DNA from: Candidatus Poseidoniaceae archaeon
Lineage (GTDB): Archaea > Thermoplasmatota > Poseidoniia > Poseidoniales > Poseidoniaceae
Assembly (NCBI GenBank): GCA_943789275.1
Contig: CALSTM010000002.1
Span: 330,001 to 362,000 of the forward strand
DNA: 32,000 nt
Direction: 5' to 3'
How positions within the stretch are numbered: position 1 is the stretch's first letter; the number at the start of each line of letters is the position of its first letter. Both the position numbers and the translations under genes were made by a program. This document shows, piece after piece, positions 17,717 through 27,896 of the stretch. The notes beneath the pieces are model-generated. The model searched no databases and was not told the origin of the DNA. It saw nothing but the letters and a program-made list of their open reading frames with translations.

Positions 17717-17768
17717 GTGACAACAATTTTGCTCACAATTCACGCTGTTTCAGATGAAATGAAACCGT

Positions 17769-19001
17769 ATGTTCAATAACGGTTGGCGAAAGCCTTCCGA
17801 TGTTATGAGTAACTACCTCGACCGAATTGGCGCTGGCTGGGTACTGGCGAATCCCGAAGTGTTCAACTTCGATTATGTCCCAGATGAACTGGTTGGCAGA
17901 GAAGATGTTCAAAACGAGTTGGCCTCCAAATTCACCACACTTCATTTGCCTGAAGGCTCGGGCCGCGTGGTCATTACTGGTCCAGTCGGCAGTGGAAAAA
18001 CCGCACTTGCTCAAACTTTTTGCCGTGACATACAACGTCATCTCTCCAACAAGAGGAACATTCGTTCTGTACACGTCAACTGTCGCAACGCTTCAACGAG
18101 CATGCGCGTTGTTCAGCGCATCTTGCACGAATTAGCACCCGGTCATCCAGACCGTGGACTCTCAATGGGAGAACTGTTGATGAGCCTACGGCGTATTCTG
18201 CGCAAGGAAACATCTCATCTCATCGTTGTCCTGGATGAAGTGGACCATATGCTGCGCCGTTCAGGCGATGACCTGCTATACCAACTGTTACGTATCGACG
18301 AGGATCAAAGTGGAAAGGGTACACTGTCGCTCATCCTCATCAGCCAAGAACAGGTTCTTGATGTACTGGAAACCGCCGTCATCTCGAGAATGGGGAGTAC
18401 CAATCATCTTCGAGTTAAACCGTACGGCATCGAAGGTCTTGCTGCGATTGCAACACAACGAGCAATACAAGGATTGGTGCCGGGGACATGGACACCCGAA
18501 ATTATTCGTATTTTGGCTGAAAAAGCGGCGATAACCGGCGATGCTCGGCGAGTGATTGAATTACTCAATGCAGCGGTGGAACGATGTGAATTCCGCCAAG
18601 ATGCTCACACTGAACGACGGCTTATCATCGACGATATTCACGTCCCGCTCAACAAAGAACCAACAACGTCGGGAAGTAATCTTGAACACATCGATGACCT
18701 CAATCCAAATGCAATGTTGGTGCTTCTGGCTTTGTGCAGACGATTGACAAAAGAAGAGTCGATGACAACCGGTGATGTCGAGCAACTCTACGCCGTAGTT
18801 TGTGAGGAGTATGAACAAAAAATGAAGAGTCATACCACGGTTTGGAAATATTTGAAAGATTTTGAAGAGCGCCAAATCATCTCTTCCAGGGTGGCTACAA
18901 TCACCGGTGGAAGGGGGCGGACAACTCATCTGAGCATGCCACATTTCCTACCAAAAGACCTCGCCAGTCGGCTCGAAATGCTGTTGAAAAAGAGATTTTG
19001 A
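17769..19001 (+). CDS. cdc6: Orc1/Cdc6 replication initiator (AAA+ with C-terminal winged helix)
   Basis: DYVPDELVGREDVQNEL, Walker A GPVGSGKT, Walker B VVLDEVDHM, GDARRVIELLNAA and a C-terminal wH region (TTGDVEQLYAVVCEEY...ITGGRGRTTHLSM). Confidence 0.9.
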   Translation: MFNNGWRKPSDVMSNYLDRIGAGWVLANPEVFNFDYVPDELVGREDVQNELASKFTTLHLPEGSGRVVITGPVGSGKTALAQTFCRDIQRHLSNKRNIRSVHVNCRNASTSMRVVQRILHELAPGHPDRGLSMGELLMSLRRILRKETSHLIVVLDEVDHMLRRSGDDLLYQLLRIDEDQSGKGTLSLILISQEQVLDVLETAVISRMGSTNHLRVKPYGIEGLAAIATQRAIQGLVPGTWTPEIIRILAEKAAITGDARRVIELLNAAVERCEFRQDAHTERRLIIDDIHVPLNKEPTTSGSNLEHIDDLNPNAMLVLLALCRRLTKEESMTTGDVEQLYAVVCEEYEQKMKSHTTVWKYLKDFEERQIISSRVATITGGRGRTTHLSMPHFLPKDLASRLEMLLKKRF

Positions 19002-19607: not shown

Positions 19608-20846
19608 ATGGCACGAAAGCTTCCCGCACAACCTGAAATCAACATTGGTCTTGTCGGCCACGTTGACCACGGCAAAACAACCCTCACCCAAGCATTATCC
19701 GGTATTTGGACCGATACCCATTCTGAAGAAAGAAAACGTGGTATTTCGATTAAACTCGGCTATGCAGATACCGCCTTTTACAAAACCAAAGAAGGACAAT
19801 ACTACGCCACTGGCCGCCATCCCGAAGGCAAAGAAGACGAACCAAAAGAATTGGAACGGGTAATCTCCTTTGTCGACGCTCCTGGCCACGAGACACTGAT
19901 GGCCATCATGATCACTGGTGCATCAATTATGGATGGAGCAATGCTGATGGTTGCTGCAAACGAAACATGCCCACAACCGCAAACGCGAGAACATTTAATG
20001 GCCCTTGAAATCGCAGGCATTGAGAACATCGTCATCGTTCAAAACAAAATTGACCTGGTTACGAAGGAACGTGCACTGGAATCCTATGCTGAAGTCAAAG
20101 ATTTCCTCAAAGGCACCATCGCAGAAAATGCTCCAATTATCCCTGTTTCCGCTCACCACGATGTCAACTTGGATATTCTCATCGATGCCATCGAGAAGAC
20201 CATTCCAACTCCTGATCGCTCTCAACACAAGCGTTCAATCATGCACGTTGCTCGCTCATTCGACATCAACAGGCCCGGTACTCGGCCGACAAAACTCCGA
20301 GGTGGAGTCATCGGTGGAAGTATCATCGAAGGAAACTTCGACATTGGCGATGAAATCATCATTGGTCCCGGTCGTAAGGTCGAAAACGGTTCGAAAACAA
20401 CATGGGAGCCAATCGAAGCGACCGTCAAGAGTATGCAAGGCGGTGGATTGGATCTTGAAAGCATGCATTCTGGCGGTCTATGCGGTATGGCAACTATGCT
20501 CGACCCGTCGATTACGACTTCAGATAACCTGTCTGGACAAGTTGTCGCACGTAAGGGTGACCTCCCTGAAGTTCGTAATTCAATTTCAATCGACATCAAC
20601 CTGATGAAAACAATGGTTGCCGGAGAAGGTGAAGCACCGGAAAAAATCTATCCACTTCGAAACAACGAGATGTTGATGATTAACGTTGCAACTGCAACAT
20701 CAGTTGGTGTTACCAAAAATTCAGAAAAAGGCAAGGCAACACTCGACTTACGTCTCCCGATTTGTGCGGATACTGGGCAGCGAGTTTCGCTTTCCCGACG
20801 AGTTGGTTCTCGCTGGCGCCTCATTGGATACGGAACAATTCTATGA
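19608..20846 (+). CDS. eif2g: Translation initiation factor aIF2 gamma subunit
   Basis: NIGLVGHVDHGKTTLTQALSG, FVDAPGHE and VQNKIDL GTPase motifs, with aIF2-gamma-like domains II and III. An AGGAGTGAGG SD lies upstream. Confidence 0.95.
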   Translation: MARKLPAQPEINIGLVGHVDHGKTTLTQALSGIWTDTHSEERKRGISIKLGYADTAFYKTKEGQYYATGRHPEGKEDEPKELERVISFVDAPGHETLMAIMITGASIMDGAMLMVAANETCPQPQTREHLMALEIAGIENIVIVQNKIDLVTKERALESYAEVKDFLKGTIAENAPIIPVSAHHDVNLDILIDAIEKTIPTPDRSQHKRSIMHVARSFDINRPGTRPTKLRGGVIGGSIIEGNFDIGDEIIIGPGRKVENGSKTTWEPIEATVKSMQGGGLDLESMHSGGLCGMATMLDPSITTSDNLSGQVVARKGDLPEVRNSISIDINLMKTMVAGEGEAPEKIYPLRNNEMLMINVATATSVGVTKNSEKGKATLDLRLPICADTGQRVSLSRRVGSRWRLIGYGTIL

Positions 20847-21256
20847 GCGTGAGCCAGTTGAAGGTGGTCATCTCTCAACAGGTTTTGGTCGACGCCTGTG
20901 GGTGGGCGGCCGTCATTGATTCAGGGATGAACATCGATACGGAAATGAACCGTGTGTTCGGACCTGCTCAACTTCGACTTCTTGACAGTGTGAAGCAAGA
21001 AATCGAACGACTCAACGAAGAACGACCTCGGAAAAAGAATCTACTCCTCCCTCTCTTAGAACAAAAATCTGAATCAATCGAGGCCTTAATCAGTGATTCA
21101 GAACATGCAGACGACCAGTTGTTTGAATTGGCATCGGAACTGAAAATACCGGTTCTTACTGTTGATGTCGATTTGAAGCGAAGACTCTACAATGCGGATT
21201 TACCCATTCTGGAAGTGAGTAAAAACCAACGTCTCCAACTGGTTGAATCTCTATAG
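20843..21256 (+). CDS. PIN-domain protein (Fcf1/Utp24-like, COG1412-type) coupled to aIF2-gamma
   Basis: The ATG at 20843 overlaps the eif2g stop (ATGA). Blocks VLVDACGW, LDSVKQEIERL, HADDQLFELA and VLTVDVDLKRRL fit the PIN pattern. The position downstream of eif2g matches the conserved archaeal gene order. The track ORF from 20762 is an implausible N-terminal extension inside eif2g. Confidence 0.6.
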   Translation: MSVSQLKVVISQQVLVDACGWAAVIDSGMNIDTEMNRVFGPAQLRLLDSVKQEIERLNEERPRKKNLLLPLLEQKSESIEALISDSEHADDQLFELASELKIPVLTVDVDLKRRLYNADLPILEVSKNQRLQLVESL

Positions 21257-21276: not shown

Positions 21277-21576
21277 TCATGGTAAAGTGAACAGAACATC
21301 ATCCCCGTGTCCATCGAGAAGACCAATCTTGACACCTGCGTCAATCCAAGCATGAGCGTAGTTAATTGCTCCAAAAGCCCGAACATGGTCTCCGATCGAT
21401 AAAAAGTGAGCCGCATCTGAAGCATAATCGTCTGCCATTCGCATCATAACGGCTAATTTTTGGGCATCTGCACTGCCTTGCTCACAAAGTGAAGTCGCCT
21501 TTGCTCGTGCTCTCTTGGTGATGTCGAGATACTTCTCAACACGCTCTGTAGTGACCGTTTTCATGTCTTCACTCAT
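21277..21576 (-). CDS. Small DUF357-like archaeal protein
   Basis: The pattern DYASDAAHFLSIGDHVRAFGAINYAHAWIDAGVKIGLL resembles the DUF357 signature (Y..Da..f...gD...Al....Ya.g.lDa) as I recall it. An AAGGAGGGTGGAG SD lies upstream. The start overlaps the upstream stop (ATGA at 21573-21576). Confidence 0.45.
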   Translation of the reverse strand: MSEDMKTVTTERVEKYLDITKRARAKATSLCEQGSADAQKLAVMMRMADDYASDAAHFLSIGDHVRAFGAINYAHAWIDAGVKIGLLDGHGDDVLFTLP

Positions 21577-22622
21577 TCTCCACCCTCCTTTTGGCGTTTC
21601 AAAAGCCGTCGTACATCCTCTGTACGACCGAGGGCTCCATAGAGTTCAACCGCTCGTGAAAGTCGTCCTTCGTCTTCAGCTGTTTGTGCACGCATGAACA
21701 ACGCCTTACGTTCTTCCCAATTCTTTGCTAATGCGGCTTCTGCAGCCGCTTGATAACGGCCTTGTCGTTCTGATTGGGCCAGATGCGGAGCTGTCCACCG
21801 TCGGATCAGGCCCGCTCGTGTTGCAGTCACCATCGTATCCGGAGTAAGACCAATCAATAGGTCGCCGAGGTCCATTGATTCACCAAGCAAAGAAAGGGCT
21901 TGGTTGTCTTCATGTGCTGAAAGGTGATGAAGGTGCCCTTCAATGCCGAGTACCCACCATCCATCCGCACTTCGAACGCCTTCCATAGGCTCCAGTGATT
22001 CGTATTCAATTCGTTCCAGTGCATCCCACCCAAACGGATGCGGTACACCTTCCCAAATGCCACCGTCGCTTGATTGCATCAATAATCGACCGTTCATGAG
22101 CGGAGTAACCCAACTCCATACTCGGTCTTCGAGAACTCGTTTCTGGTCGCTTTGAGCCAGGCGAGCGCACCAGAGTTTGCCTTCAGCGTCTTGCCACATC
22201 ATGTGTTCACGGTCAAGCCAGCCAAGCAAACGACGAACTTTACCGCTATCGAGCCTACGAAGGCCTGTTCCTTCGTGCGTAAACAAATGCAGGTGCCCTT
22301 CACGCCCAGACAGAATCCAACCGCCTCCAGGACGTGCCAGAAGTTCAGCAAACCCACCGGGTGTCGAACGGCCTTCATGAAGTAAAGAACCATCCGATGT
22401 CGAAAGAACATAGAATCCATGCGCTGCTAAAATTCCGAGTACGCCGTTGTTGGCTTGAGCACAATGTGCTTTGAACGGTAACTCTACCTTCCATCGGACC
22501 GAACCATCTGCTTCGATCATGAACAAATCTAATCCACTGCTGACCACCATGCCCCCTTCAACAGGAGCGAGTGCAGCAATGCGTTGAGGTGCTTGCCACG
22601 ACCATGTGATTGACCACGACAT
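21573..22622 (-). CDS. Cytoplasmic beta-propeller (PQQ-like repeat) protein with a C-terminal helical, TPR-like tail
   Basis: It has repeating blade-like units: GGMVVSSGLDLFMIEADGSVRWK, NGVLGILAAHGFYVLSTSDGSLL, GGGWILSGREGHLHLFTHEG, NGRLLMQSSDGGIWEG and ADGWWVLGIEGHLHHLSAHED. There is no signal peptide. The C-terminus is FMRAQTAEDEGRLSRAVELYGALGRTEDVRRLLKRQ. Confidence 0.6.
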   Translation of the reverse strand: MSWSITWSWQAPQRIAALAPVEGGMVVSSGLDLFMIEADGSVRWKVELPFKAHCAQANNGVLGILAAHGFYVLSTSDGSLLHEGRSTPGGFAELLARPGGGWILSGREGHLHLFTHEGTGLRRLDSGKVRRLLGWLDREHMMWQDAEGKLWCARLAQSDQKRVLEDRVWSWVTPLMNGRLLMQSSDGGIWEGVPHPFGWDALERIEYESLEPMEGVRSADGWWVLGIEGHLHHLSAHEDNQALSLLGESMDLGDLLIGLTPDTMVTATRAGLIRRWTAPHLAQSERQGRYQAAAEAALAKNWEERKALFMRAQTAEDEGRLSRAVELYGALGRTEDVRRLLKRQKEGGE

Positions 22623-24517
22623 CAGACATCACCCCCGAGTACTTTCCAAGCGATCAGTTGGGCACGAGCAGCCTGCGTCAATTCGTAGTATCTGTTTCGT
22701 CCAATGGTTCGAACGCTCAACACACCGCCTTTGAGAAGACGGTTGCTAATTTGAGAGAGGCGAGCCCGTTTGATGCTTAATTGCGTTAGTATTTCTTCAT
22801 CGGATGGAGAAAAACGCCGGTCGTTAGCAACGGAAATCACAATCATCTCGTGGCTGGTGAGCGTCGATAAAAGCGAGGTGTTCAATGCATAGTCTTGTTT
22901 TTTCCCTGTTGGTTTTCGCTGTAAAGCCTCCAAAGCATCAACCAATTTTCGACGATTCACGACCGTATCAAGGCCGTCCGAAGGCTGGAGAGCAAGTTGC
23001 AATGCCTTCATCACAGGAACCATTCCTGCAAGTTCGCTCAACAAGCCATTTGGGGCCTGCGAAGGTTGTTCTGATGGTTCGATATGCTCCGGTCCAGACT
23101 CAAACAATTGCTCAATTGGAGTTGGTTCCAACTCTTCATGTTCAAAGAAGCCCACTTCATCATGGAGCAAGAAAGCCGAATCGTCCTCCGAAATCACTTC
23201 TTCCTTTGGCTCAGGAGGCCTGAGTGAAGGGTCTTCCCACAATTCCGCACCTTCGGCTGAATCAACCAATTCTTCCTCTGGAGCCTCGGCATCGGAAACT
23301 TCAGCGTACGATTGGTCGGTAAAGGCTCGATTTCGAGCGAATAAACCCGTCATGCCTTTGGTTGCTATCGGGTCAAGTGGCGGCCTCTGCATCGGTTCTG
23401 GTTTTGCTTTCGGTGGTGTTGCTGGATAGCCATCACGATAATTCTCAACCGCTTCCAAATCCTTCAATGCTTCCTGATTTTCTTGATCTTCGGTGAGTTG
23501 AGCGAGATTCAAATCGAAACTGTTGTTCATGTCTTCTAGACTCTCCATGATTTTGGCATCTTGAACCTCCTGCAGCGTCTGGAATTCCGAGTCTTCATTG
23601 GGCAGGTCTGGTTGCTCAAAGGATGCCTCTTCTTCAGCAGCAAACATAGATTCGAAGGTAGGATGGATTTGAGGCTCAACCGATGGCGGAGTAAACTGAG
23701 GTTCTGAAACAGGTGTTGCTTGGTCGTATCTGGGGTCTACATAGGTGAATTGTGACATTTTGGCACTGTCAATGGCATCACGCATGACCCGAATGACTTC
23801 AGCTGGAAGACCGCTGGTCTGTTCCAGCAAATGTTCTGCGTCTTCAATCGCAAATGAAAACGCTTGACTGGTTGACTTTTCAATGCGTTTCTCAACAAGC
23901 AATTGAATTTCTTCTGCCGTCAAGTTTGGTAACGGGTTCATTTGCTCGAGGCGTTGGAGAATGGATGCGGGTAGCATGTTCTTATCCTTCGTTTCCAAGA
24001 CAACGACAATGACTGCTTGAAGTCGCTCGAGAAGCGGAAGTGTGTCTCGCAAGGCGACGTTGAGTGCCGAGATATCGACGGTAGATGCGTCGAGTACAAT
24101 CAAAGGCAAGGCCCCGGAAAAGTCTTGAGTAGCGCCTAATATTTGGCCAATAAGTTCGTTTCGATTCTCTGGAGGATTCGTATGCACAAAATGAGTGAAC
24201 ATTTCTTTCAGCAAATTCAGACCTGCGTTGGAATGAGAAATATGGTCAATGTAAATCGAAAGCGGGGCTGTTTCCGAGGCACAGCGAAGCAATGAAGTTC
24301 GCCCCGAACCGTGTTCCCCCATCAGCAAAATACGACGGGGTGAGCGGAATTTCATGTACTGTGAAAGGATCGTTAACATGTGGTTACGTCCAACAAGGAG
24401 ATTCGAATCGCTCGCTTCTAAGGGCAAAGTCGAGAATGGATTGGCGTCCATAGGAGGAAGGGTCATTTCTTTGCCAACAATTCGCATAATGGAGCCAATC
24501 CTCTTTGGGTATTTCAT
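22622..24517 (-). CDS. ORC/Cdc6-like AAA+ protein with degenerate Walker motifs, an acidic disordered linker of about 270 aa and a C-terminal winged HTH
   Basis: N-terminus: NPFSTLPL...LLVGRNHML...RRILLMGEHGSGRTSLLRC. The Walker A-like GEHGSGRT (nt 24296-24319) has Arg in place of Lys. The Walker B-like PLIVLDAS has no Glu. A lid-like region reads NPLPNLTAEEIQLLVEKRI...SGLPAEVIRVMRDAID. A long E/D/P-rich segment follows. The C-terminal LSIKRARLSQISNRLLKGGVLSVRTIGRNRYYELT is MarR/TrmB-like wHTH. Confidence 0.65.
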   Translation of the reverse strand: MKYPKRIGSIMRIVGKEMTLPPMDANPFSTLPLEASDSNLLVGRNHMLTILSQYMKFRSPRRILLMGEHGSGRTSLLRCASETAPLSIYIDHISHSNAGLNLLKEMFTHFVHTNPPENRNELIGQILGATQDFSGALPLIVLDASTVDISALNVALRDTLPLLERLQAVIVVVLETKDKNMLPASILQRLEQMNPLPNLTAEEIQLLVEKRIEKSTSQAFSFAIEDAEHLLEQTSGLPAEVIRVMRDAIDSAKMSQFTYVDPRYDQATPVSEPQFTPPSVEPQIHPTFESMFAAEEEASFEQPDLPNEDSEFQTLQEVQDAKIMESLEDMNNSFDLNLAQLTEDQENQEALKDLEAVENYRDGYPATPPKAKPEPMQRPPLDPIATKGMTGLFARNRAFTDQSYAEVSDAEAPEEELVDSAEGAELWEDPSLRPPEPKEEVISEDDSAFLLHDEVGFFEHEELEPTPIEQLFESGPEHIEPSEQPSQAPNGLLSELAGMVPVMKALQLALQPSDGLDTVVNRRKLVDALEALQRKPTGKKQDYALNTSLLSTLTSHEMIVISVANDRRFSPSDEEILTQLSIKRARLSQISNRLLKGGVLSVRTIGRNRYYELTQAARAQLIAWKVLGGDV

Positions 24518-24548
24518 GTTTCACTCTCATCAGAGGTGTAGTAGACCT

Positions 24549-24648
24549 GTTAGGACATGTTAACTGTGCGGCGGGATACGCTTTGGAAGCCTAATTAACG
24601 CACCACTAACGAGTTCTTAACGCGTTAATCGAACCGTTAAAACCGTTA
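24549..24648. promoter_or_regulatory. Array of GTTA(A/G) / (T/C)TAAC motifs in the divergent promoter region, including a 12-bp palindrome and a tandem 8-mer
   Basis: The motifs are GTTAG 24549-53, GTTAAC 24559-64, TTAAC 24595-99, CTAAC 24606-10 and the perfect palindrome TTAACGCGTTAA 24617-28. The tandem AACCGTTA lies at 24632-39 and 24641-48. The array sits in the largest non-coding stretch of the window, 24518-24761. Confidence 0.45.
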
Positions 24649-24761
24649 GAGGAGACAGAGAGATGGACAAGAACCTGAAGAAGAGGAAGCACACGCTTGA
24701 ATCAAGTATTGCCGATTGCTTGATGGGGTAAGGGCCCGTGGAGAGGACTGGTCGTGACCTT

Positions 24762-26060
24762 ATGGCAGTTGAGAACAGTCGTTTGAGTGGTTTTTTCAGA
24801 CACAGCGTCGCTGAACGTCGAGCCATCGTTGCCGAGATGGCGAACCTGACACAGGAGCAAGTCGATGCACTGGAAGCCTGTGGCGCCCTCAGCGAAGATT
24901 CAGCAGACCGCATGATTGAGAACGTCATTGGCACCATGTCGCTTCCTGTTGGCATTGCGACAAATTTTGTCATCGATGGAAAGCATTACCTCATCCCCTT
25001 CTGCCTCGAAGAATCAAGCGTTGTCGCTGCGGCATCGAACATGGCGAAACGTTGTTTGAAAAACGGAGGATTCAGCACCAATTCCGATGCTCCAATGATG
25101 ATTGCTCAACTCCAAGTCTTGGATTGTCAAGACTGGAAGAAAGCCGAGCAAGATATCCTGGAAGCAGCAGACGAACTCATGGCATTGTGCAACAGCCTTC
25201 CATCCACGATGATTCGACTTGGAGGCGGTTGCAAGCGCATTGAAACACGACTCTTAGACACCATCAGTGGACCGATGCTGATTGCACACATCATTGTGGA
25301 TTGCAGAGACGCTATGGGCGCTAATGCCGTGAATACCATGGCTGAATTGATCGCCCCTCGTATCGAGCAAATCACTGGTGGCCGAGTCCATCTGCGCATT
25401 CTTTCAAACCTCGCAGCCCACCGATTAGCACGAGTTCAAGCGGTCTTCACCCCGGAAGAGATATCTGAAGATGGAACGCACGAGAACGGAGTATCGGTAA
25501 TCGAAGGCATCCTTGAGGCCCAACACTTCGCAATGGCTGACCCGTTCCGAGCTGCAACCCACAACAAAGGCGTGATGAATGCAATCAGCAGCGTTGGCGT
25601 GGCTTGCGGCCAAGACTGGCGAGCGATTGAGGCTGGCTGCCATGCTTGGGCAGCATACAGCAATGGAACATACGGTTCAATGACCTCATGGGAGAAAGAC
25701 AGTAATGGGAACTTGGTTGGTACCATTGAAACACCGATGGCTGTGGGCATCGTTGGAGGCGCCTCTAAGGTGCATCCGGTAGCACAAGCCAACCTTGCCA
25801 TACTTGGAGTCGAATCAGCTCAAGAATTGGCTGGAATCATTGCTGCTGCGGGTTTATCACAAAACCTTGGAGCATTGAGGGCACTGTCAACCAAAGGCAT
25901 TCAAGCAGGCCACATGAAATTGCATGCACGGAATATGGCCGTTTCTGCCGGTGCAGTGGGCGATGAAATCGAAATTGTTGCCGCACGACTTCAAGAAGCA
26001 ACAGGACCCAAGACGCAAACGCTTGTCGGCGAATTGCTTGAAGCACTGCGAAACGAATGA
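24762..26060 (+). CDS. hmgA: Class II HMG-CoA reductase
   Basis: ENVIGTMSLPVGIA, LEESSVVAAASN, VDCRDAMGANAVNTM, RAATHNKGVMNAI, PMAVGIVGGASKVHP and GIQAGHMKLHARN track class II enzymes (MvaA / P. mevalonii type). The start is ATG 24762 (MAVENSRLSGFF) or GTG 24738. Confidence 0.9.
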   Translation: MAVENSRLSGFFRHSVAERRAIVAEMANLTQEQVDALEACGALSEDSADRMIENVIGTMSLPVGIATNFVIDGKHYLIPFCLEESSVVAAASNMAKRCLKNGGFSTNSDAPMMIAQLQVLDCQDWKKAEQDILEAADELMALCNSLPSTMIRLGGGCKRIETRLLDTISGPMLIAHIIVDCRDAMGANAVNTMAELIAPRIEQITGGRVHLRILSNLAAHRLARVQAVFTPEEISEDGTHENGVSVIEGILEAQHFAMADPFRAATHNKGVMNAISSVGVACGQDWRAIEAGCHAWAAYSNGTYGSMTSWEKDSNGNLVGTIETPMAVGIVGGASKVHPVAQANLAILGVESAQELAGIIAAAGLSQNLGALRALSTKGIQAGHMKLHARNMAVSAGAVGDEIEIVAARLQEATGPKTQTLVGELLEALRNE

Positions 26061-26061
26061 T

Positions 26062-26685
26062 TCACTCTTCTTCTCCAAGCGGAAGAGTTGATTGAATGAG
26101 ACCGCCAATCTCAGACTCTTCCTTTAGCACCGCAGCATCTTCCATTCCATCAAACATGCCGGTTGTCTTCACTTGCTCTCTGAACCATTGTTTGACTTTC
26201 TTACGGTCGGTGTAGGGGCAACCAAATGTTTCCGAGAAACGACGGGTCGTTGAAAGTCGGCGAGTATTACCATCTTTACGACGGTCAACCATGCCCAATT
26301 GAGCAAGTTCACGAACATAGTCGTAGGCTTTCTGGCCCAGTAATTCCACCAGTCGAGATTGGGGCATTGGCTGATGGTAAGCGATGAGTGCTGCGGCTTT
26401 CAACAACTTTTGTGGAATTTCAGTTTTGGTTTCTTTGGGTAGGTGACTCGCAATATCGGGTTTCACTTCAATGGCCCATCGGTCCCCAACCTCTGCTACC
26501 TGCAAGGCACCTCCACGGCGTCGCTTTAACGTAGAACGCAAGGAATAGAGCGAATCAAGCATCTCATCTTCATCGTAACCGAGGGCCGTCGATAATTCAG
26601 GTACACTCATCGAGCGGCCTGCGCCAAAGAGGGTGGCTTCGAGCAAAGTATCGATCGGCACTTCTGTCATTTCCTTCACCTTCAT
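26062..26685 (-). CDS. scpB: Segregation and condensation protein B
   Basis: LLEATLFGAGRSMSVPELSTALG, LKAAALIAYHQPMPQSRLVELLG and GMVDRRKDGNTRRLSTTRRFSETFG form the tandem-wH ScpB pattern. The start overlaps the scpA stop (ATGA at 26682-26685). Confidence 0.85.
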   Translation of the reverse strand: MKVKEMTEVPIDTLLEATLFGAGRSMSVPELSTALGYDEDEMLDSLYSLRSTLKRRRGGALQVAEVGDRWAIEVKPDIASHLPKETKTEIPQKLLKAAALIAYHQPMPQSRLVELLGQKAYDYVRELAQLGMVDRRKDGNTRRLSTTRRFSETFGCPYTDRKKVKQWFREQVKTTGMFDGMEDAAVLKEESEIGGLIQSTLPLGEEE

Positions 26686-27896
26686 TCAACCAACCATTCA
26701 TGGTCATCGTACGACTGTTCTTCAACTCCAGTCGGTTCATTTATCTCAACGGCTGTTTGTTCTTTTTGCTGCTTAGCCAGTGCTCGTTCTTGCCTACGAA
26801 CGGATTCTTCTTCAGCCAAACGTGCTTTTTCTGCCCGTAACTTGGCATGGCGAACTGAACCGGTGTCTTGCTCCTGAATACGTTGGTTTTCAGCGTTTTG
26901 TTGGTCTTCAATCAATTGACTGATTTCCTCAAAAGTCTCGATTTGAGGCCATGCATCTTCCAAGTAGATGACGCCATCAGGAACGCTGTCCTGGGTAATC
27001 GAAGCAAAACCGCGATGCGTGAGGAAAAGACCTGCGATAAATGAAGCAACTTTGGCCTCATCATCGTAGCCTTCTGGAACAGAACCGAACGTTTGTTCTA
27101 AAATCGGCTTCAGCGATTCCATCACCACAAGTACCGGGACCTTGGTCGAATCAGATGCTACGCAAGACGTCCTCAGTGCTTGCCAGCAGCGTTTGATATC
27201 ACCCTCGAGGTCTTCGTTGTGCATACGTCCTCCAACATCTGAGAGGTATTCTTTCAATTCTGCTTCATGGGCAAGTCTGTTTTCCTCTCGCAAACGAAGT
27301 GATTCTGCATCGTCTGAGGCATCTTTGAACGCTGAAAGTAATTCGACAAGAGTAACTGGTCGGCCTTCATCACGTCGAACCCGGTTTTCCAATAAATCAG
27401 GAAGGAATTCATCCGCAGTGCCTTGAAGGACTGAATTGGTGAAGAAGAAATCCTCGTCGTTGTAATCCGCTTCCCATCCAAAGCCCAGCCCGTCATCCCA
27501 GTCGTCTTCAGTATCGTTGTATTGGACTCGCTCAAACAAATCTTCAGCTTGATGATGAAGAACTTCCCAAGACATGCGTATCAGGCGCCCACAAGCTGGA
27601 AGGTCAAGCGTTGCGGCGTCTGACTTGACACGGGTTGTGAACACTTTGAGGAAACTCGACAAGTCAATGTTCCAAGCATCGAGCCCTTCATCCCGAACCA
27701 GGGAAAGTACGAGAGCGACGGAGCGGTCAAACGGATCAACAAGCGTTTGGTGCTCTGCCTCTTCACGCTCAGCAATCGCCATAATTTTGTCTCCGAAAAG
27801 AGCTGCTTCTTGTGATTCCTCACCTGATGCGAGCAATTGGTCAATAACATCCTGACGCAGGAACCATTTGTCCAATCCAGATTGTTGCTCACTCAT
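26682..27896 (-). CDS. scpA: Segregation and condensation protein A (kleisin), extended form
   Basis: N-terminal LVLSLVRDEGLDAWNIDLSSFLKVF and C-terminal WHD-like VASFIAGLFLTHRGFASITQD. A GAGGTGA SD spans the smc stop. Confidence 0.8.
   Translation of the reverse strand: MSEQQSGLDKWFLRQDVIDQLLASGEESQEAALFGDKIMAIAEREEAEHQTLVDPFDRSVALVLSLVRDEGLDAWNIDLSSFLKVFTTRVKSDAATLDLPACGRLIRMSWEVLHHQAEDLFERVQYNDTEDDWDDGLGFGWEADYNDEDFFFTNSVLQGTADEFLPDLLENRVRRDEGRPVTLVELLSAFKDASDDAESLRLREENRLAHEAELKEYLSDVGGRMHNEDLEGDIKRCWQALRTSCVASDSTKVPVLVVMESLKPILEQTFGSVPEGYDDEAKVASFIAGLFLTHRGFASITQDSVPDGVIYLEDAWPQIETFEEISQLIEDQQNAENQRIQEQDTGSVRHAKLRAEKARLAEEESVRRQERALAKQQKEQTAVEINEPTGVEEQSYDDHEWLVE

Follow-up and report, generated by a model that had tools for sequence, protein, structure and literature searches.

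An AAA+ winged-helix protein with degenerate ATPase motifs and a conserved upstream site array: a candidate regulator-operator pair in Poseidoniales archaea

Introduction

AAA+ modules joined to DNA-binding domains are known from several described systems. In Orc1/Cdc6, an AAA+ base is followed by a lid and then a winged helix; in DnaA, which hydrolyzes ATP and acts on arrays of DnaA boxes, an AAA+ domain is likewise joined to a helix-turn-helix type domain. The archaeal AAA_16/ATPase_2 (PF13191/PF01637) winged-helix ATPases, which are poorly characterized, combine a P-loop core, a lid, and a C-terminal winged helix in about 400 to 440 amino acids (aa). Two further groups invite comparison: ArsR/SmtB repressors (BigR, HlyU), which are ~100-aa homodimers sensing metals or thiols, and inactive AAA+ subunits (clamp-loader delta and delta-prime, some ORC subunits), which keep the AAA+ fold with degenerate catalytic residues and are members of hetero-oligomers with active partners. 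Here, we analyze a locus in a 32,000-nucleotide (nt) stretch of the genome of Candidatus Poseidoniaceae archaeon (contig CALSTM010000002.1, positions 330,001 to 362,000; "the window"), in which an AAA+ winged-helix protein, P1, is encoded ahead of a beta-propeller protein, P2, and a DUF357 protein, P3, and next to an array of short repeated sites. Coordinates are those of the window, and the three open reading frames (ORFs) are as follows.

22622-24517, minus strand: P1 ORF as first called, 631 aa
21573..22622, minus strand: P2 coding sequence, 349 aa, seven-bladed beta-propeller with a four-helix tail
21277..21576, minus strand: P3 coding sequence, 99 aa, DUF357 family

P1 resembles Orc1/Cdc6 (the structures compared include 2qby and 2v1u, together with the window's own gene at 17769-19001) in its order of AAA+ base, lid, and winged helix and in having this family as its top Foldseek match. 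Between beta2 and beta3, the position of the initiator-specific motif in Orc1/Cdc6, P1 also has two helices, and its lid motif (GxP..IR.[LM]RD..D) recalls GDARRAIDLL. It differs in lacking a canonical Walker A, the Walker B Glu, and an arginine finger, and in carrying a winged helix of the ArsR type that is separated from the lid by 236 disordered residues. With the AAA_16/ATPase_2 winged-helix ATPases (P0475, P0493, P0507), P1 shares an NPF..P motif and a vGR box in addition to the P-loop core, the lid, and the C-terminal winged helix. These relatives have canonical GxxGxGK[ST] and hhhhDD/DE motifs, are without a long acidic linker, and lie in other contexts (a defense-like island in the case of P0475), whereas P1 occupies a fixed housekeeping operon with an associated array. 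By sequence comparison, P1 is homologous to this group, from which four features set it apart: its catalytic residues are lost, its acidic linker is long, its operon is a fixed housekeeping one, and an array is associated with it.

Homology to DnaA is limited to the AAA+ fold, and P1 probably does not hydrolyze ATP as DnaA does; its candidate target, like an array of DnaA boxes, consists of helically phased short sites. ArsR/SmtB repressors share the P1 signature ..LSQ..N.L...GIL..R..GR.R.Y.L, and the central site of the array is palindromic as well; in P1, however, the domain ends a 620-aa AAA+ protein, and the candidate target has multiple sites. P1 is degenerate in the manner of the inactive AAA+ subunits, but its operon encodes no active paralogue.

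Few archaea of the surface ocean are as abundant as Poseidoniales (Marine Group II); no member has been cultured, and their gene regulation is almost wholly obscure. The locus provides a testable pair, a lineage-specific DNA-binding protein and an unusually conserved multisite candidate operator, and the latter adjoins the gene for the key enzyme in the synthesis of isoprenoid lipids and retinal precursors. P1 itself is a natural AAA+ module that keeps its phosphate-binding loop and is stripped of its catalytic residues. In this locus, DUF357 also shares a fixed operon with a DNA-binding protein, which would narrow the search for the role of DUF357 if the association is functional. We regard the P1 locus as a clean regulator-operator candidate and not as a categorically new system.

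The AAA+ module of P1 keeps its phosphate-binding loop and has degenerate catalytic motifs

Residues of P1 are given in the 631-aa numbering, and model confidence is given as the predicted local distance difference test score (pLDDT) of AlphaFold2.

23744..24460, minus strand: AAA+ domain, residues ~20-258, pLDDT 73-88
24296..24319, minus strand: Walker A GEHGSGRT, residues 67-74, with Arg replacing the catalytic Lys
24083..24103, minus strand: Walker B remnant LIVLDAS, residues 139-145, with Asp kept and no catalytic Glu after it

The AlphaFold2 model of P1 has the AAA+ fold, that is, an alpha-beta-alpha P-loop core with a helical lid, and its parts are an N-terminal hairpin, an invariant NPF motif, the P-loop core, and the lid. 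Foldseek returned 288 PDB matches at E ≤ 1e-3; among the 50 listed, almost all were AAA+ proteins and one was a STAND-type resistosome. The best match was Sulfolobus Orc1/Cdc6 on origin DNA (2qby_A; E 5.9e-7), and similar scores were obtained for TnsC, RFC subunits, and MuB (E to 3e-6) and for ORC subunits, Hda, and RuvB. At the sequence level, AAA_16 scored 29.4 bits on the window's P1 (cutoff, 32.6), and 31 of 32 family members matched it at E ≤ 0.01.

An earlier note on this DNA had read GEHGSGRT and IVLDAS as substituted Walker motifs, in comparison with the intact GPVGSGKT and VLDEVD of a neighboring Orc1/Cdc6. Both P1 motifs are present (residues 67-74 and 140-145), and so are those of the neighbor, whose stop codon lies 3.6 kb from that of P1. 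We scored the state of the P1 motifs in 129 distinct orthologous N-domains. The P-loop (G-x-x-G-S-G-[R/K]-[T/S]) has invariant glycines at 67, 70, and 72; its position 73 is occupied by Arg in 118 domains and by Lys in the other 11, and position 74 is always Thr or Ser. Walker B D143 is found in 129/129; Y, F, A, or V follows it in 104 of these, and neither D nor E is among the commonest residues listed at that place. The catalytic acid is missing from all 129 domains, and the K-to-R change is not universal. No conserved Arg that could serve as an arginine finger was found at residues 183-200 of these orthologues, and a sensor-2-like R246, within G.P..IR.[LM]RD..D, is kept in 115 of them. Lys-type P1 proteins (e.g., P0377 and P0366) occupy the same P1-P2-DUF357 slot.

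The farthest relatives, P0475, P0493, and P0507, have canonical GxxGxGK[ST] and hhhhDD/DE motifs. Since such relatives exist, the degenerate motif state of P1 is derived, and the catalytic apparatus was lost in the ancestor of the P1 family. Strict selection has continued on the phosphate-binding loop, whose position 73 tolerates only positive charge. RecA K72R and Rad51 K191R, which carry the same Walker A change from Lys to Arg, bind ATP and hydrolyze it poorly. By analogy, P1 most likely binds nucleotide as an allosteric ligand and not as fuel, with little or no hydrolysis.

P1 is a small family with a single genomic context

An exhaustive profile search of 1.84 billion representative proteins yielded only 222 relatives of P1, many of them fragments cut at contig ends, and their context was the same wherever it was readable. 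We found no literature on the P1 family, including work on Poseidoniales and Cdc6. Scanning GTDB genomes with the P1 alignment A1, which reached close relatives only, gave 71 species loci; wherever the contig was long enough, these kept the order ScpB, hmgA (opposite strand), P1, P2, DUF357, aIF2-gamma (opposite strand). A second scan, seeded with distant P1 relatives, gave 80 further metagenome loci, all of which had the order hmgA, P1, DUF357. One cluster of these was identified by its NCBI names as Thalassarchaeaceae, the other family of the order.

The note had described the architecture of P1 as Orc1/Cdc6-like. This holds for the AAA+ fold, for which Orc1 is the top structural match, and fails for the sequence affinity and for the type of winged helix. 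Alignment A1 could be matched by hhalign to the window's Orc1/Cdc6 over 39 columns around the P-loop (72.6% probability), compared to 232 columns (96.8% probability) for P0475, a canonical AAA_16/ATPase_2 protein with a MarR-type domain that scores above the AAA_16, ATPase_2, and AAA_22 cutoffs. By sequence, P1 is nearer to AAA_16/ATPase_2 proteins with a MarR-type domain than to Orc1/Cdc6. P1 had no Pfam hit to Cdc6_C or Cdc6_lid, and its match to TIGR02928 reached only E 0.094.

The surroundings of P0475 were also readable. Its island (L153, 56-7971) includes a PRTase-CE protein and an ORC-CDC6-like (PF24389) protein, and the end of the P0475 gene is overlapped by that of a 767-aa HerA/mad8-like ATPase (PADLOC mad8; E 8e-16).

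An ArsR-type winged helix follows a disordered acidic linker

The region of P1 beyond the AAA+ module consists of a linker and a terminal DNA-binding domain.

23036..23743, minus strand: acidic linker, predicted disordered, residues 259-494, pLDDT below 50
22643..22885, minus strand: C-terminal ArsR-type winged helix, residues ~545-625

The winged helix is the most conserved region of P1 across the family, with the core SPSD..L..L.[IV][KG]R.RLSQI.N.L.K.GIL.VR..GR.R., and was modeled with moderate confidence (residues ~545-600; pLDDT 75-82). A profile of the P1 C terminus built from 28 diverse sequences (A6) matched BigR (3pqj) at E 6.2e-5 and other ArsR/HlyU structures at E 0.004 (3f6v) and ~0.01 (6o8k and 4k2e); the winged helix of Cdc6 (2qby_A) was matched at E 0.26 only. 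The Joint Genome Institute annotation of a P1 homologue (P0397) reads "ArsR family regulator." This domain is the only DNA-binding domain encoded in the immediate locus. Apparent stand-alone relatives of the winged helix were rejected, as the short matches were genes truncated at contig ends and belonged to the same locus where their context was readable.

A disordered acidic spacer of about 270 residues had been proposed. Its acidic and disordered character is borne out, but its length is 236 residues, of which 24.6% are D or E and 11.9% are P, for a net charge of -46. Possible roles of the linker are that of a flexible tether or that of an autoinhibitory DNA mimic. Within Poseidoniaceae, it contains conserved short motifs (FDLNL, GLxxRxR, and ELW). 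The idea that linker motifs track the presence of P2 was rejected: FDLNL and SAxLLHDE are also missing from distant loci that bear P2. As the two motifs are absent from distant loci both with and without P2, their distribution reflects phylogeny and not a link to P2.

A conserved array of GCGTTAA sites lies upstream of P1

The intergenic region between hmgA and P1 is 274 nt long (probable hmgA ATG at 24762) and contains the following elements.

24596..24648, unstranded: array of six TAACG/CGTTA cores, namely, three, then the palindrome TAACGCGTTA (24618-24627), then three
24546..24564, minus strand: two more half-sites in phase, TTAACATGTCCTAACAGG, located between array and promoter box; conserved block TTAACnTGTCCTAACnGGTC

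The motif array that the note had placed upstream of P1 is real and conserved. In the window, it is the sole TAACG/CGTTA cluster. Every locus with a readable intergenic region has the array. Its unit, derived from 615 instances that come from 117 distinct intergenic regions, is AAnGCGTTAAt; the copy number is mostly five or six, and the commonest spacing is 11 bp (160 same-orientation pairs). All 66 of 66 Poseidoniaceae-type loci contain the exact palindrome TAACGCGTTA, and the offsets follow a fixed pattern. By chance, this 10-nt palindrome would be expected ~0.9 times in 838 kb; it was observed once per Poseidoniaceae-type locus with an intergenic region. In the distant loci, at least four cores were found in 54/54, including P2-less and Lys-type lineages, and the layout was rearranged with the core the same. 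No locus had a second cluster (1.56 Mb), and every cluster found was in the hmgA-P1 intergenic region.

The sites are located upstream of P1, at ~105-170 nt from its start. Between the array and the P1 ATG, the spacing had a standard deviation (SD) of 9.9 nt (near group) or 14.9 nt (far group); between the hmgA ATG and the array, the corresponding values were 19.4 and 48.3 nt. Because its distance to P1 is the steadier of the two, the array belongs to the P1 side of the control region, and it is probably the control site of the operon.

An element acting at the RNA level was also considered. A structured RNA or riboswitch in the 140-nt leader was rejected, with no pairs in RNAalifold (16 loci) and no Rfam match in the whole window; a leader without RNA structure or Rfam family favors a DNA-level element. 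In viral contigs, a search for a regulon of three phased GCGTTAA sites gave 39 matches, which were unrelated perfect tandem repeats without a P1 relative and were discarded.

Repeats of this kind next to an AAA+ gene raise the question of whether the array is a replication origin or a centromere-like site, with P1 as an Orc-like initiator or as a partition or SMC-loading factor that would need to bind ATP but not to hydrolyze it. P1 does combine an AAA+ module and a winged helix and is best matched by Orc1/Cdc6 on origin DNA; repeats in inverted orientation adjoin its gene, as at archaeal origins; orc1/cdc6 is ~5.5 kb off and has only 52 nt upstream of it; and the genes for SMC and ScpB are adjacent. 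Against this, the window contains no AT-rich unwinding element, and the stretch after the array is GC rich. The GC skew across the 32 kb merely mirrors the coding strand, and the winged helix of P1 is of the ArsR type, not the Cdc6 type. We know of no origin recognition box elements that the array repeats resemble, and no other repeat clusters were found in the 32-kb window. We consider this explanation highly improbable.

On the hmgA side of the intergenic region, an inverted repeat, ATCAAG-N12-CTTGAT (24701-24724, plus strand), lies ~40-60 nt upstream of the probable hmgA start. The block CATCAAGCAATCGGCA at this repeat is conserved in 65 Poseidoniaceae-type intergenic regions, and the repeat may be a separate hmgA control element or promoter.

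The P1 gene probably begins downstream of its first ATG, behind a conserved promoter-like box

Comparison of orthologues and of the DNA upstream points to a P1 gene shorter than the ORF as first called.

22622..24487, minus strand: P1 coding sequence with the probable true start M11, 621 aa, ATG at 24487-24485
24507..24524, minus strand: BRE/TATA-like box GTGAAACATGAAATACCC, ending 19 nt ahead of the M11 ATG

M11 matches the MRI or MRV with which most P1 orthologues start. The ATG at 24517, further upstream, falls within a block conserved at the DNA level, (G/C)AAA(C/G)A(T/A)nA(A/T)ATAC(C/T), and several loci, L001 among them, have no ATG inside this box. The box is invariant or nearly so at a fixed distance (16 aligned loci; 65 intergenic regions), with its ATAC core ending 22 nt ahead of the M11 ATG in all aligned loci. 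From its position and composition, we infer that the box is the B recognition element (BRE)/TATA element of a leaderless or nearly leaderless operon mRNA. Given this reading and the MRI/MRV starts of the orthologues, the real P1 start is most likely at 24487 (621 aa).

In the public gene calls of P0001, P0019, P0032, P0046, and P0071, P1 has a 10-residue extension, MKYPK..., that begins at an ATG inside the TATA-like box. This extension is likely a recurrent misannotation of the start site.

A proposed model for autoregulation by P1

We propose that P1, read from a leaderless start as the first gene of the operon, would grip DNA through its conserved ArsR-type winged helix, and that several copies would self-associate via nucleotide-loaded, nonhydrolyzing AAA+ modules. 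The resulting oligomer would fill the ~11-bp-phased GCGTTAA sites upstream of its own leaderless promoter. From the array, P1 would control expression of the operon that it heads and perhaps that of the divergent hmgA. The layout resembles the classic arrangement of an autoregulated transcription factor, with hmgA as a possible second target. We put the probability of this model as a whole at about 0.5.

Several points weigh against it. Nucleotide binding by an Arg-type P-loop is assumed. The physical link between P1 and the array is one that we infer, and another transcription factor could bind there; both the array and the recognition helix of P1 are nearly invariant, precluding a test by covariation. 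In addition, over 100 nt separate the center of the array from the core promoter, a long distance for a typical archaeal repressor.

One form of this objection is that the array is the operator of another factor, such as a regulator of hmgA, and that P1 has an unrelated role (e.g., in chromosome organization) and is adjacent only incidentally. In every locus, hmgA diverges from the same intergenic region, the conserved ATCAAG-N12-CTTGAT at 24701-24724 indicates that this region has more than one control site, and the SMC-ScpB cluster is next door. However, the distance of the array is fixed relative to the P1 start and variable relative to hmgA, further in-phase half-sites continue toward the P1 promoter, and P1 bears the sole DNA-binding domain of the immediate locus. 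We judge this alternative unlikely, though it deserves to be taken seriously.

The autoregulation model can also be extended. P1 might represent a new type of archaeal regulator in which an AAA+ module that no longer hydrolyzes senses, through its Arg/Lys P-loop, a metabolite containing an adenine nucleotide (such as ATP, ADP, or even CoA or HMG-CoA), a filament on the array sets the expression of hmgA and of P1's own operon, and P2 serves as a cosensor or adaptor. This extension seems to us distinctly unlikely; if it were true, it would give a first functional handle on DUF357.

The three genes are coupled by conserved overlaps

The three genes are chained by overlapping stop and start codons.

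22620..22624, minus strand: overlap TGATG of the P1 stop and P2 start, with the Shine-Dalgarno-like GGGGGTGAT ahead at 22628-22636
21573..21576, minus strand: overlap ATGA of the P2 stop and P3 start, with the Shine-Dalgarno-like AAGGAGGGTGGAG ahead at 21578-21590

Both overlaps had been noted from the letters of the window, and the reverse complement reads exactly TGATG at 22620-22624 and ATGA at 21573-21576. At the P1/P2 junction, a 1-nt overlap (TGATG or TAATG) was found in 45 and a 4-nt overlap in 9 of ~66 loci, so that an overlap is kept in at least 54/66; the other loci are script artifacts or have TGATG too. At the P2/P3 junction, 62 of 64 loci have a 4-nt overlap (ATGA or GTGA). The Shine-Dalgarno-like sequences GGGGGTGAT and AAGGAGGGTGGAG are located in the last codons of P1 and P2, respectively. 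The conserved C termini of these proteins, GG[DE] in P1 and KEGGE in P2, are probably conserved because of the embedded Shine-Dalgarno sequences.

Gene order and junctions are thus conserved across the order Poseidoniales, and the retention of the overlaps supports the suggestion of coexpression through coupling. The trio forms one operon of the Poseidoniales core genome, in which P2 and P3 are translated by coupling via Shine-Dalgarno sequences inside the final codons of the preceding gene.

P2 is a dispensable beta-propeller

P2 was modeled with high scores (pLDDT, 88; predicted template modeling score, 0.75) as 27 strands in seven blades (residues 1-277), followed by a tail of four helices (residues 279-346). 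The protein starts directly at the first strand, and a hydrophobic leader is absent. Foldseek matches were generic (E 2e-13 to 1e-10) and included BamB (2.3e-13), WD40 proteins (TM score, 0.6-0.65), and Ycf48. None of 24 orthologues fell into a Pfam family, and none matched PQQ, WD40, or other propeller repeat families of Pfam at E ≤ 0.1. P2 had been described as a signal-less PQQ-like propeller with a TPR-like tail; a propeller without a signal is what the model shows, but the PQQ likeness holds at the level of fold and not of Pfam families (24 orthologues). Likewise, the tail is helical in the AlphaFold2 model, but the TPR_16 match reached just E 0.008.

A 16-nt direct repeat within P2 (21927-21942 and 22287-22302) encodes the blade motif EGHLH (in REGHLHLF and IEGHLHHL). 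This repeat is the vestige of a duplication within the propeller.

Sequence conservation is higher in P2 than in P1: where P1 identity is 27-40%, that of P2 is 46-82%. Even so, it is missing from ~40% of the 80 distant Thalassarchaeaceae-type loci (L097, L102-L103, L106-L109, L112-L115, and most of L122-L152), in which P1 is followed by DUF357 within 20-35 nt and the array is kept upstream of P1. In a tree of HMG-CoA reductase, the P2-less loci form two coherent clades of 11 loci each, which argues for real evolutionary loss rather than assembly error. Since P2 occurs in both families at ~40% identity, it is ancient, though dispensable. P2 would be an accessory protein-binding propeller that was lost in parts of Thalassarchaeaceae, and it could dock as an adaptor on the AAA+ module of P1 or on the linker motifs.

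The note had gone further and seen in P2 a detachable repeat partner of the STAND/NOD type. P1 and P2 would then be a split STAND/NOD-like sensor in signaling or defense, with P1 as the nucleotide switch and P2 as the detachable sensor. In line with this, 12 of 32 P1 family members gave weak nSTAND1 matches (AAA_16, 31/32), in a distant relative (P0500), AAA_16 and a winged helix are joined to TPR repeats in one protein, and the canonical relative P0475 lies within a defense-like island. However, the nSTAND1 matches are confined to the N-terminal 50 residues, up to and including the P-loop. P1 itself has neither repeats nor an effector domain, and it is kept although P2 is missing from ~40% of distant loci. 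The family has a single locus with a housekeeping context conserved across the order, and no PADLOC model matched beyond E 0.0035. The claim of a detachable STAND/NOD-type partner thus has no specific support, and we regard the split-sensor reading as very unlikely. A defense system was likewise rejected, with no meaningful match in PADLOC or PHROGs.

DUF357 and the question of a three-protein unit

The third protein, noted as DUF357-like, is a member of DUF357 (PF04010; 69.3 bits versus a cutoff of 29.4; E 2.9e-19) and matches the solved DUF357 structures 2pmr (8.6e-7) and 2oo2 (1.4e-6). DUF357 corresponds to arCOG01224, which 463 of 524 archaeal genomes contain; it ranks among the top-priority uncharacterized pan-archaeal proteins and is elsewhere linked to DUF555 and a TagD-like cytidylyltransferase (PMC6393860). 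It is also among the 76 archaeal single-copy markers of anvi'o (PMC12680538).

Because P2 is lost in distant loci and DUF357 is pan-archaeal, the trio is not an obligate three-part system. On present comparisons, P1 is the lineage-specific constant of the operon and DUF357 its universal part, which would be a housekeeping protein cotranscribed with P1 and P2. P1, P2, and P3 may form a complex, but the loss of P2 in some clades and the universality of DUF357 count against an obligate three-protein complex.

Genomic setting and neighboring genes

The trio is set among housekeeping genes on both sides. One flank contains diphthamide synthase, Orc1/Cdc6 (17769-19001), ribosomal protein S6e, aIF2-gamma, and a PIN_9 protein; the other contains the divergent hmgA (HMG-CoA reductase), ScpB, an ORF without a Pfam hit in the kleisin position, and SMC. 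Marine metagenomes contain close relatives of P1, P2, and P3 by the hundreds for each protein. Horizontal transfer of the trio was rejected, as the GC content of the three genes and that at third codon positions (GC3) are those of the neighboring genes.

The ORF in the kleisin position (26682-27896, minus strand; 404 aa) lies between SMC and ScpB, where the kleisin ScpA would be expected. It had no Pfam hit at E ≤ 1e-3, and none is on record for its L001 orthologue either; it may be a highly divergent kleisin. The gap between diphthamide synthase and orc1/cdc6 (17717-17768) is just 52 nt. This is too short to hold a replication origin immediately ahead of the initiator gene, in contrast to the situation in many archaea.

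Two neighboring genes appear to start downstream of their mechanically called positions. The ORF of HMG-CoA reductase starts at GTG 24738 (plus strand), but its orthologues begin with MAVENS or MPVENS, so that the real hmgA start is probably ATG 24762. The PIN_9 ORF (20762-21256, plus strand; 164 aa when begun at a TTG) shares 85 nt with the end of aIF2-gamma; as PIN_9 orthologues are 122-127 aa long, its true start is probably further downstream. PIN_9 lies between DUF357 and aIF2-gamma in the loci with called genes listed, and in the window it ends 21 nt from the convergent DUF357 stop.

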